UHGV virus genome: UHGV-0140160
DNA length: 12,485 nucleotides
DNA from: a virus
Direction: 5' to 3' (one strand)
Shown: positions 10,330 through 11,486 of the stretch, piece after piece
Numbering within the stretch: position 1 is the stretch's first letter
How the letters are laid out: each line of letters begins with the position of its first letter
Notes under the pieces: model-generated
Told to the model about the DNA's origin: nothing
The model's input: only the letters and a program-made list of their open reading frames with translations
Databases searched by the model: none
Program-made: the position numbers and the translations under genes

Positions 10330-10434
10330 TCAACGCTAGCGGGTAAATCATCAACGCTAGCGGGTAAATCATCAACGCCAGCGGGTAAATCATCAACGCT
10401 AGCGGGTAGAAAAGATCAACGCTAGCGGGTATCC
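10330..10434 (+). repeat. Origin iteron array (incC-like): five direct ~21-bp iterons, consensus aTCAACGCTAGCGGGTAAAtc
   Basis: Copies start at 10330, 10351, 10372, 10393 and 10415, so four of five are exactly 21 bp apart (two helical turns). One copy has CCA in place of CTA. The array ends about 35 bp before the repA start. Confidence 0.85.
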
Positions 10435-10469
10435 TGCATGAATTACTAACATATTCTAAGGTGCGTGGA

Positions 10470-11354
10470 ATGGAGCCAGAAATCAGCAACTTAGCTTTAA
10501 CGATTACAGAAGTTGATAAAACTTCCGGTGAAGTTATCCACTTGTTACCGAATTCAAAGCAAAGCATTCAGCCCAAATCGTTGCTTAGGCTGGGGGTGTT
10601 TGTTCCAACCGTAAAGGATGGAACTGATCCTATGAAGAAGGGGCATTCTGTTGATGCCACACAAGAGCTTTGTCGGTTATCAACGCTGGCGGGTGAAGGA
10701 TATGAAAGCGTTAGCATCTATGGACCTCGCCTTGATATGGATACTGACTTTAAGGTTTGGCTGGGTATTGTTGATGCACTAACTCATAAGCACCTGGATA
10801 AAAATGGAACTGTCAGGCTGAATTTTGTTGATTTTGCGGCTAGTTGCGGCCTTGCCACCAAGCGAGTTGATTCTAAATTGAAAAAACGTTTTGGGGATTC
10901 TCTGACCAGAATTCAACGAACTAGTTTTCAATTTGTTAAACCATCAACGGTAGCGGGTAAGAAGATAAAAATAAACATGAGTTTGGTTTCCACATCGTTC
11001 TATGACGAGGGCACGGATGAGGTGATCATTCGTCCTAACCCTGACTTGAATACGCTTTATCAGGTTGATGGAAAAACACGGTTATACCTGAAAGTGCTAA
11101 AGACCCTGGCCCGTAAAGAATCAGCACAAGCGCTTTATCTTTATCTTGTTGAACTTCCTGATAATTTCTACAAGATAGGTTTTGACCGATTGAGGGATCG
11201 CCTACAGCTTACATCCCATAAGGGCGCTCAAAATGCAACCATAAAGAAAGCCTTGGCCCAGTTGGAAGAGGCTGGATTTTTAAAGTATTCCATTGAGAAG
11301 GTACGCGGTGATTTTGTGTTGAATATCATTAGCAGGGAAAGGAAGATCGCTTAA
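10470..11354 (+). CDS. repA: Plasmid replication initiator RepA (P1 RepA family, iteron-binding)
   Basis: ATG 10470 with AAGGTG 6 nt upstream (the ORF track starts at in-frame GTG 10461; either is possible). Translation contains LLRLGVFVPT and GPRLDMDTDFKVWLGIV, which match my recollection of P1 RepA (LMRLGVFVP, GPRLDMDTDFKTWIGVI). Flanked on both sides by iterons. Confidence 0.85.
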   Translation: MEPEISNLALTITEVDKTSGEVIHLLPNSKQSIQPKSLLRLGVFVPTVKDGTDPMKKGHSVDATQELCRLSTLAGEGYESVSIYGPRLDMDTDFKVWLGIVDALTHKHLDKNGTVRLNFVDFAASCGLATKRVDSKLKKRFGDSLTRIQRTSFQFVKPSTVAGKKIKINMSLVSTSFYDEGTDEVIIRPNPDLNTLYQVDGKTRLYLKVLKTLARKESAQALYLYLVELPDNFYKIGFDRLRDRLQLTSHKGAQNATIKKALAQLEEAGFLKYSIEKVRGDFVLNIISRERKIA

Positions 11355-11360
11355 GGTATT

Positions 11361-11486
11361 TTTACCCGCTAGCGTTGATTTACGCTTAATTTGTATTCTC
11401 TCTCGCCCGCTAGCGTTGATTTCATGTGTGCTGACGGGGTTCCCTCCAGCACACATAATTTTGTTGGGATCAACGCTGGAGGGCAA
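11361..11486. repeat. Downstream iteron control region (incA-like): two inverted copies of the origin iteron, one P1-type iteron core inside a palindrome, one direct hybrid iteron
   Basis: Inverted copies tacccgctagcgttgatt (11363-11380, perfect) and cccgctagcgttgatt (about 11404-11421). Palindrome atgtgtgctg-N13-cagcacacat at 11424-11457 whose right arm ccctccagcacacat is the reverse complement of ATGTGTGCTGGAGGG (P1 iteron core as I remember it). Direct hybrid gatcaacgctggagggcaa at 11468-11486. Confidence 0.7.

Follow-up and report, generated by a model that had tools for sequence, protein, structure and literature searches.

The 12,485-bp sequence analyzed here (the whole stretch of DNA, referred to as the window) comes from the virus genome UHGV-0140160. 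It contains a repA gene for a plasmid replication initiator, which is accompanied by short repeats (iterons) upstream, downstream and inside of the gene. We consider it likely that the region from position 10204 to approximately 11400 forms on its own a theta replicon of the P1/RepFIB family that is regulated by iterons. It would maintain a D6-like phage-plasmid in its plasmid-prophage state, with control iterons within repA and relic iterons at the edge of the slot in which it is located. Judged from homology, RepA and its iteron can be assigned to the lineage of 'repFIB-like' or RepHI1B-like replicons of IncHI plasmids. The intragenic iterons are a conserved trait of this RepA subfamily and not an oddity of the window element. 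They are under purifying selection at the DNA level and co-vary with the iteron specificity across clades, and they probably function as RepA-binding control sites.

Iterons, origin and initiator of the replicon

For identification of iterons, the 19-mer ATCAACGCTAGCGGGTAAA was scanned over the window with up to three mismatches allowed, and the expectation was taken from 200 shuffled sequences. The scan revealed nine matches against 0.01 expected, and none of the 200 shuffles reached nine. Together with a tenth, 'hybrid' copy (ATCAACGCTGGAGGGCAA, 11469-11486, plus strand), they are located where an earlier note, made from the sequence alone, had placed them. Five direct copies of 19 bp each (origin iterons) precede repA on the plus strand, starting at 10329, 10350, 10371, 10392 and 10415 (span 10329-10433). 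They are spaced by 21, 21, 21 and 23 bp, about two turns of the helix, and show at most two mismatches to the consensus. Two further copies, with two mismatches each, lie on the plus strand inside repA at the positions given in the note, i.e., intragenic iteron 1 at 10679-10697 (ATCAACGCTGGCGGGTGAA, encoding S-T-L-A-G-E) and intragenic iteron 2 at 10943-10961 (ATCAACGGTAGCGGGTAAG, encoding S-T-V-A-G-K), the latter in a hypervariable segment of the RepA protein. The second iteron set, 3' of repA, consists of two inverted copies on the minus strand. Downstream iteron 1 (11361-11379), called the control iteron, matches the 19-mer perfectly (19/19, 0 mismatches), and downstream iteron 2 (11402-11420), at the junction with the D6-like flank, has three mismatches and a perfect 15-nucleotide (nt) core.

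The origin extends further to the left than the range of the earlier note (10330-11486). Its left end is marked by a DnaA box (TTATCCACA, 10218-10226, plus strand), which was read directly and aligns with the annotated DnaA-binding site of P1 oriR. It is followed on the same strand by an A+T-rich stretch (10232-10289) with five GATC (Dam) sites at 10232, 10246, 10257, 10268 and 10286, which align with the Dam sites annotated in P1 oriR and with the corresponding stretch of the relatives. This stretch is presumed to be the region of DNA unwinding and SeqA sequestration. A G+C-rich spacer (10290-10328, plus strand), recognized by alignment to P1 oriR and relatives and containing a conserved GCCC block, separates the GATC stretch from the iterons. 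The five origin iterons are the counterpart of P1 incC and probably overlap the repA promoter.

The repA gene (10470-11354, plus strand) encodes a protein of 294 amino acids, which was classified by Pfam Rep3_N and by its homologues as an initiator of the Rep_3 superfamily and of the P1/RepFIB/RepHI1B-like family. The Rep3_N match (E 1.2e-9, 39.1 bits, cut-off 22.4) indicates the winged-helix domain of Rep_3 (PF01051). The gene is intact and of full length relative to all homologues. Its start is most likely the ATG at 10470 and not the GTG at 10461, because the homologues align from this ATG. The P1-like character of RepA, which had been suggested before, is in agreement with 38.7% identity to P1 RepA over 91% coverage (E 2e-47). 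SSU5 RepA shows 43.9% identity, and proteins annotated as 'RepFIB replication protein A' show 41-43%. Thus a Rep_3 domain, similarity to P1 and RepFIB, tandem 19-bp iterons and a DnaA box with GATC region are all present.

The nearest relative of RepA is the RepB-family protein of Leclercia adecarboxylata pM17-63 (L001; 88.8% identical), followed by that of the 86-kb IMG/VR viral contig IMGVR_UViG_3300045988_166783 (L037; 88%). RepB-family genes on Klebsiella and Raoultella plasmids of ~200-400 kb, typed as IncHI5 or IncFIB/IncHI1B (here L004 and L100), are ~80% identical at the protein level. For the genes of this whole group the name 'repFIB-like' is used in the literature (PMC6339943). Truncated repA genes of Klebsiella plasmids show 75% identity to the window RepA over residues 1-190. 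A look-up of the exact RepA protein gave no record, and no meaningful match was obtained when the PDB was searched by sequence. In a megablast against INPHARED phages, PLSDB and 5,426 complete E. coli genomes only the flanks of the replicon were matched and not the cassette itself, and a metagenome scan detected no RepA relative above 80% amino acid identity.

Comparison with known replicons

The overall organization is that of the P1 replicon (oriR/incC - repA - incA; IncY), with which the window shares the DnaA box, five GATC sites, the G+C-rich spacer, five 19-bp iterons at ~21 bp, repA and downstream iterons including inverted ones. The P1 iteron given in the earlier note, GATGTGTGCTGGAGGGAAA, is correct when read against K02380, and so is the observation that the window iteron is different. 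The 3' half (GCTGGAGGG/GCTGRCGGG) is common to both, whereas the 5' half reads ATCAAC in the window and ATGTGT in P1. The origin and control iterons of the window read ATCAACGCTAGCGGG and not the IncY (P1/P7) form ATGTGTGCTGGAGGG, the P1 type being confined to an orphan pair at 11424-11456. Further differences to P1 are the number of downstream iterons (two in the window, nine in incA), the two copies inside repA, which are absent from P1-type genes, the absence of parAB after repA and the different location in the phage genome.

The note had regarded the iteron as divergent. This holds in relation to P1, but the iteron is not idiosyncratic. It is the normal iteron of the RepHI1B-like or 'repFIB-like' lineage, since the same consensus and layout, with direct copies upstream and inverted copies downstream, were found in L001, L037, L004 and L100. 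IncHI5 and IncFIB/IncHI1B replicons such as pKP-14-2-131-NDM-1 and pCPE16_2 have the consensus ATCAACGCYRGMGGGTA, and the window-type consensus ATCAACGCTRGMGGGTA is present in L004 and L100. Upstream copies at 21 bp and inverted downstream copies at 41-42 bp are likewise common to the window and these replicons. The latter differ by 15-23 downstream copies, by the lack of copies in repA and by their location on conjugative megaplasmids instead of a phage. Near-perfect arrays of 15-23 inverted iterons with a 42-bp period were observed at 3470-4500 in L004 and at 3028-3574 in L100. In L004 the array overlaps a coding sequence annotated as hypothetical protein, which is probably a spurious call. 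The repA gene of the IncHI5 replicon (L004) is 70% identical to the window gene at the nucleotide and 81% at the amino acid level, so the two are not near-identical. At ~70% nucleotide identity standard replicon typing would therefore probably not assign the window replicon to IncHI5 or IncFIB/IncHI1B.

Leclercia pM17-63 and the IMG/VR contig share with the window the five origin iterons and both intragenic copies, and have three to six inverted downstream copies (Leclercia 6, IMG/VR contig 3). Their backbones are different, with neighbours including spanin-like and ParA-like genes. A set of about five iterons spaced by 21 bp precedes repA in nearly all loci of the family that were surveyed. 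RepFIB of F, P307 and pO157 belongs to the same family (~41% identity, from an IncFIA/FIB/FII plasmid) and follows the same logic, in that the upstream iterons BCDD' form the origin and the downstream iterons E-K are responsible for control and incompatibility by handcuffing (PMC11983097). Its iteron sequence is unrelated, and no intragenic iterons are described there (PMC11983097). The replicon of phage D6, which also occupies the slot directly after pmgB, is likewise an iteron-flanked Rep_3 initiator gene, but its 251-aa RepA is not detected by the window RepA at E 1e-3 and its iteron reads GGTGTAAAAATTGCCCTCAA.

By analogy to P1 incA and RepFIB iterons E-K, copy control of the window replicon might proceed as follows. 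RepA monomers would bind to the five origin iterons and, together with DnaA, open the GATC-rich region; RepA bound to the same iterons would repress the repA promoter. The downstream and intragenic iterons would provide additional RepA sites, which limit the copy number by handcuffing with the origin iterons and by titration of RepA. Part of the control array would thus have moved into the repA coding sequence in this lineage. In related replicons, downstream iterons are a negative control and incompatibility element, and RepFIB iterons E-J alone displace the replicon (PMC11983097). In a virulence plasmid of Klebsiella that is cited for an origin of the RepHI1B type, the reported copy number was 3.0 without a downstream iteron block, 2.4 with one block and 1.3 with two (PMC9602619). 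We infer that this replicon is the same as the Klebsiella replicons with truncated repA mentioned above.

Iterons within the repA gene

The earlier note had described the intragenic iterons as uncommon. The copies are real, but they are shared by relatives and are constrained at the DNA level. Both are present in the repA genes of L001 and L037 at the same offsets (+209 and +473). The three genes show 74-78% nucleotide identity overall and 46-52% at third codon positions. The longest run identical in all of them comprises 22 nt (10678-10699) and encloses intragenic iteron 1; the next longest has 12 nt. In addition, the two 17-nt segments with the lowest third-codon-position entropy in repA are the two intragenic sites, with the lowest value for site 2. 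At this site L001 and L037 have poorer iteron matches (three mismatches), and two amino acid changes of the window protein relative to both (S to T, E to A) move the site towards the iteron consensus. The synonymous test of this subclade comprises three sequences.

An independent group, clade B, contains RepA proteins with 59-64% identity to that of the window, encoded on plasmids of Erwinia, Pantoea and Pluralibacter, on IncHI1 plasmids and on many metagenome contigs. Clade B uses a different iteron, ATCCACTRTACCGGGTA, and carries one to four copies of it inside repA. In 17 non-redundant clade-B genes the three loci of lowest third-position entropy are sites of the clade's own iteron, at +475, +580 and +209. 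The site at ~+209 is homologous to site 1 of the window, with the iteron of clade B in place of that of the window. The site at ~+475 overlaps the codons of site 2 on the opposite strand, and the encoded peptides differ (IPGTDDQ in clade B, PSTVAGK in the window). An ancient duplication of WH1/WH2 as source of both copies, which are in frame and 88 codons apart, was rejected because the IncHI relatives have no copies and because the clade-B peptide at site 2 is unrelated. P1-type repA genes contain no intragenic iterons. In a third RepA clade (iteron TTGACTATGTGCGATTT) one weak match to the own iteron was observed in repA (TTGACTATAAGCGAATC, 14/17, in L104, and in L028 and L038 at ~+580 to +601). 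It is located at the position homologous to the +580 site of clade B (LYxVD motif) and is absent in L040.

The distances from the last origin iteron (10415) to the first (10679) and from there to the second intragenic copy (10943) are 264 bp each, i.e., ~25 helical turns. Equal spacing was also found in L037 (264 and 264 bp), and in L001 the distances are 263 and 264 bp. In clade B, e.g., in L010 with offsets +146, +209, +475 and +580, the distances between internal sites are 63 and 105 bp, both of them multiples of the iteron period of 21 bp. The spacing may reflect helical phasing for RepA-mediated looping, or merely a conserved gene architecture.

Initiator sites inside the initiator gene are known from other systems, like the lambda origin in gene O, the beta origin of R6K at the end of pir and the rep-internal origins of the RepA_N plasmids pAD1 and pSK41. 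In all of these, repeats bound by the initiator are part of its own coding sequence, so that protein and DNA site must co-evolve. There, however, the internal repeats are the origin or a part of it, whereas the origin of the window is located upstream and is complete; the internal copies look like dispersed control sites. Our literature searches found no description of intragenic iterons in RepFIB, RepHI1B or P1-type replicons; the original RepHI1B papers were outside of the search, so an earlier description is possible.

The larger the downstream array of a locus, the fewer copies are found inside its repA gene (Spearman rho -0.71, n=24, uncorrected for phylogeny and with non-independent loci). 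This relation is of importance for the question of how the intragenic sites act. They might act mainly on repA expression, with bound RepA blocking the elongating RNA polymerase as a second layer of autorepression. Both sites are located in the transcribed region downstream of the promoter, initiators bound to iterons are tight binders, and autorepression at the origin iterons is established for P1. A roadblock, however, does not predict an inverse relation with the size of a downstream array that is not transcribed. The ~+475 site, which occurs in either orientation across the clades, fits pairing or titration equally well. A role mainly in expression seems possible but rather unlikely, and both roles may hold at the same time.

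The replicon slot and the iterons at its right edge

The left border of the slot is formed by a pmgB-like gene on the minus strand (9325-10146; PHROG 1854, PmgB-like, E 4e-130). The annotation of D6 also places pmgB before repA. The genes sit and pmgB match D6 at 86% in D6-like synteny, the order repA-icd-ant is that of pRHB38-C13_3, and the backbone of the window is 92.9% identical to the E. coli plasmid NZ_CP085065.1 (L104). The window can thus be classified, on the basis of homology and gene order, as part of a D6-like, P1-related phage-plasmid.

Homology of the window to D6 and to the D6-like element L005 stops at 10203 and resumes at 11406, whereas homology to L001 comprises 10218-11352, ending at the end of repA, and homology to L037 comprises 10218-11379. 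Downstream iteron 1 is the last element in common with the L037 replicon. No D6-like flanks were found around the L001 and L037 replicons. By these complementary limits, the region from 10204 to ~11400 is a replicon cassette of ~1.2 kb in an exchange hotspot after pmgB. Among D6-like phage-plasmids this slot holds at least four types of replicon: the D6-type Rep_3 replicon (D6, L005), a P1 type (IMG/VR contigs L086 and L089), a third P1-family type in L104 (iteron TTGACTATGTGCGATTT, RepA 42.6% identical to that of the window) and the type of the window. In D6 the tenant, a Rep_3 protein unrelated to the window RepA, is the sole annotated plasmid initiator. An exchange of replication genes among P1-like phage-plasmids has already been inferred in general terms (PMC10879196).

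Four iteron-like elements at the right edge (11402-11493) lie in or next to the flank. The palindrome with a P1-type core mentioned in the earlier note is a head-to-head pair of P1-type iteron cores (ATGTGTGCTGACGGG gtt CCCTCCAGCACACAT; arms 11424-11438 and 11442-11456). Both arms are exact natural P1 cores of K02380, where ATGTGTGCTGACGGG corresponds to incC copy 12 and CCCTCCAGCACACAT to the incA form. No cognate RepA is in view, and the pair is also present in D6 and L005 beside an unrelated replicon. Further to the right, the 'hybrid' copy on the plus strand overlaps a D6-type iteron-like sequence on the minus strand (GTGAAAATTGCCCTCC, 11478-11493; together 11469-11493). In L005, the repeat finder assigned the counterpart of this site to the D6-type iterons (family D2). 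A recombinant between P1-type and window-type iterons was considered for the 'hybrid' and rejected: the same sequence is a regular upstream (origin) iteron of the IncHI5 replicon, so the copy is a normal variant of the window iteron family.

Downstream iteron 2, the P1-type pair and the 'hybrid' copy are all located in the flank which is common to D6 and pRHB38-C13_3, both of which have a D6-type replicon. D6 and L005 carry a degenerate counterpart, CTCAACGATAGCGGG, in place of downstream iteron 2. In the 91-kb genome of D6 as a whole, the P1 type and the window type are each represented by a single iteron-like sequence, located at the right edge of the replicon. No P1-family RepA is encoded by D6. 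L104 and L038 keep D6-type iterons downstream of differing repA genes, and L091, with a P1-type replicon, has head-to-head P1-type pairs downstream of repA with D6-type iterons between them (3790-4280). Mixed iteron types around replicons are thus recurrent among these phage-plasmids. Another mixed arrangement was observed in L091 at 2601-2640, where a P1-type and a window-type iteron stand side by side, 21 bp apart, upstream of the origin array.

Because they are located in a flank common to elements with other replicons, the P1-type pair, the 'hybrid' and the D6-type iteron-like sequence (11424-11493) are most likely relics of earlier replicons. In successive replacements of the cassette, control iterons of the former occupants of the slot would have stayed behind at its right border. 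The recombinational history which the note had deduced from the mixed iterons is retained in this reading; they would, however, not be part of the working cassette and would record serial replacement at one slot instead of a hybrid replicon.

The P1-type pair, and perhaps the other iterons at 11424-11493, could instead be kept for a function. They might be decoys that capture the RepA of co-resident P1/P7-type (IncY) prophages and thereby displace these, or they might terminate repA transcription or insulate the immunity operon that follows. The window and L005 agree in every position of the right arm and of 10 further nt, in spite of 79-89% identity of the flank, and the pair survives in D6 without a P1-family RepA. 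The four elements of the right edge form nested inverted repeats with a predicted RNA fold of -49.7 kcal/mol (z -4.4), followed by AATTTTGTT, and cloned RepFIB control iterons displace resident plasmids (PMC11983097). On the other hand, the module occurs in just six public records (D6 and five PLSDB plasmids), so its conservation is weakly sampled, and the left arm and the spacing are different, with a gap of 3 nt in the window and of 10 nt in D6. In P1, one or two iterons exert little incompatibility. The palindrome was not called in a terminator scan, and the D6-type relics behind other replicons demonstrate that such leftovers arise without need for a function. We therefore regard a retained function as improbable.

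Points against the proposed reading

Several observations weigh against a functional replicon with intragenic control sites and relic iterons. The repA promoter was not located, as a consensus promoter scan gave nothing convincing in the iteron array. The second DnaA box of P1 and the relatives (TATCCACA), between iteron 5 and repA, is degenerate in the window (TTACTAACA, 10434-10469). In the flank, a run of 25 nt (CCCTCCAGCACACATAATTTTGTT) is identical between the window and L005, which hints at some constraint on the iterons located there. The inverse relation between intragenic and downstream copies has exceptions in L115, L116 and L118, with two to three intragenic and 10-15 downstream copies. 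Finally, the IncHI5 and IncFIB/IncHI1B types are the closest well-sampled relatives and have no intragenic copies; a replicon of this type can therefore do without such sites.

This last point also bears on the possibility that the intragenic iteron-like sequences have no function and are kept by protein constraint, by chance or by gene conversion from the flanking arrays. Relatives with 80% amino acid identity replicate without them, the subclade of the window is represented by three genes, and internal copies could, in principle, be kept in line with the array by gene conversion. Chance is excluded, as the expectation for the entire window is 0.01 matches. The silent third positions are not explained by protein constraint, and the sites are the least variable synonymous segments in two independent clades. 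At site 2 the two clades encode unrelated peptides, but the DNA of each contains the iteron of its own clade, and these iterons lie on opposite strands. A homology of 17-19 bp is very short for RecA-dependent conversion. Absence of function therefore seems very doubtful. It is highly improbable that the replicon has become inactive and that the element depends for its maintenance on a replicon elsewhere, of which the visible 12.5 kb would give no indication. In spite of the degenerate DnaA box and the two remaining downstream control iterons, repA, the five origin iterons, the first DnaA box and all five GATC sites are intact, and the corresponding slot of D6 holds its only annotated initiator. 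The ongoing constraint on the intragenic sites is also an argument for a system that is still active.

Neighbouring genes

The right border of the slot is formed by the start of the immI immunity operon on the plus strand (11524-11801), which was identified by Rfam and a promoter scan. It comprises promoter-like sites at 11524-11551 and 11573-11601 (consensus scan), the a1/b1 targets at 11595-11647 (RF03163, 54.6 bits) and the c4 antisense RNA at 11716-11801 (RF01695, 71.9 bits), both of the latter above the gathering threshold. The immI cassette (c4, icd, ant; window 11500-12485) directly follows the replicon, as in pRHB38-C13_3. In D6 (records L185/L186), one icd-ant pair is located beside repL and a second pair at 74.0-75.2 kb; this different placement suggests that the immunity cassette moves or has been duplicated among D6-like elements. 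An open reading frame for 111 amino acids (11730-12065) overlaps the c4 RNA, and just its last 70 residues match the Icd family. Its true start is therefore probably internal.

Two further observations concern the tail genes. Positions 140-668 of the window are 86-87% identical to the tail-fibre gene H of P2-like phages (Wphi, P88, Xuanwuvirus and others), which points to an exchange of tail-fibre modules between P2-like phages and the P1/D6-like element. Within sit (5332-9270), encoding a Sit-like transglycosylase of 1312 amino acids, the central and N-terminal part (7743-9131) shows 68-70% identity to L005 or no match, and the flanks of this part are 80-84% identical. This indicates a variable region in an injected tail protein.

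Significance of the replicon and its iterons

Whether plasmids and plasmid-prophages are able to coexist in one cell depends on their replicon types. The iterons in the replicon of this D6-like phage correspond to those of the IncHI5/IncHI1B resistance and virulence plasmids of Klebsiella, which are of clinical importance. As the iterons are common to both, cross-incompatibility or interference between the phage-plasmid and these plasmids is a testable possibility. The replicon itself is a well-formed one of known kind in a new combination, and its design is ordinary except for the intragenic, DNA-conserved iterons. The most interesting residue of the analysis is this selected, specificity-tracking intragenic set.

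As a more far-reaching and tentative idea, which we consider conceivable but would not favour, the copy-control iterons of the RepHI1B-like subfamily might have moved partly or wholly into the initiator gene. The repA gene would then be the source of RepA and, at the same time, a handcuffing partner. Loops of the protein would be dictated by the DNA motif and evolve along with the specificity of the iterons, internal sites would trade off against the external array, and the foreign iterons at the slot edge would possibly serve as incompatibility decoys against rival phage-plasmids. The intragenic iterons offer a simple handle on iteron control, as synonymous recoding removes the sites and leaves RepA unchanged. 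How phage-plasmids swap replication modules is illustrated concretely by the slot next to pmgB, where at least four cassettes are interchangeable and foreign iterons have been left over.

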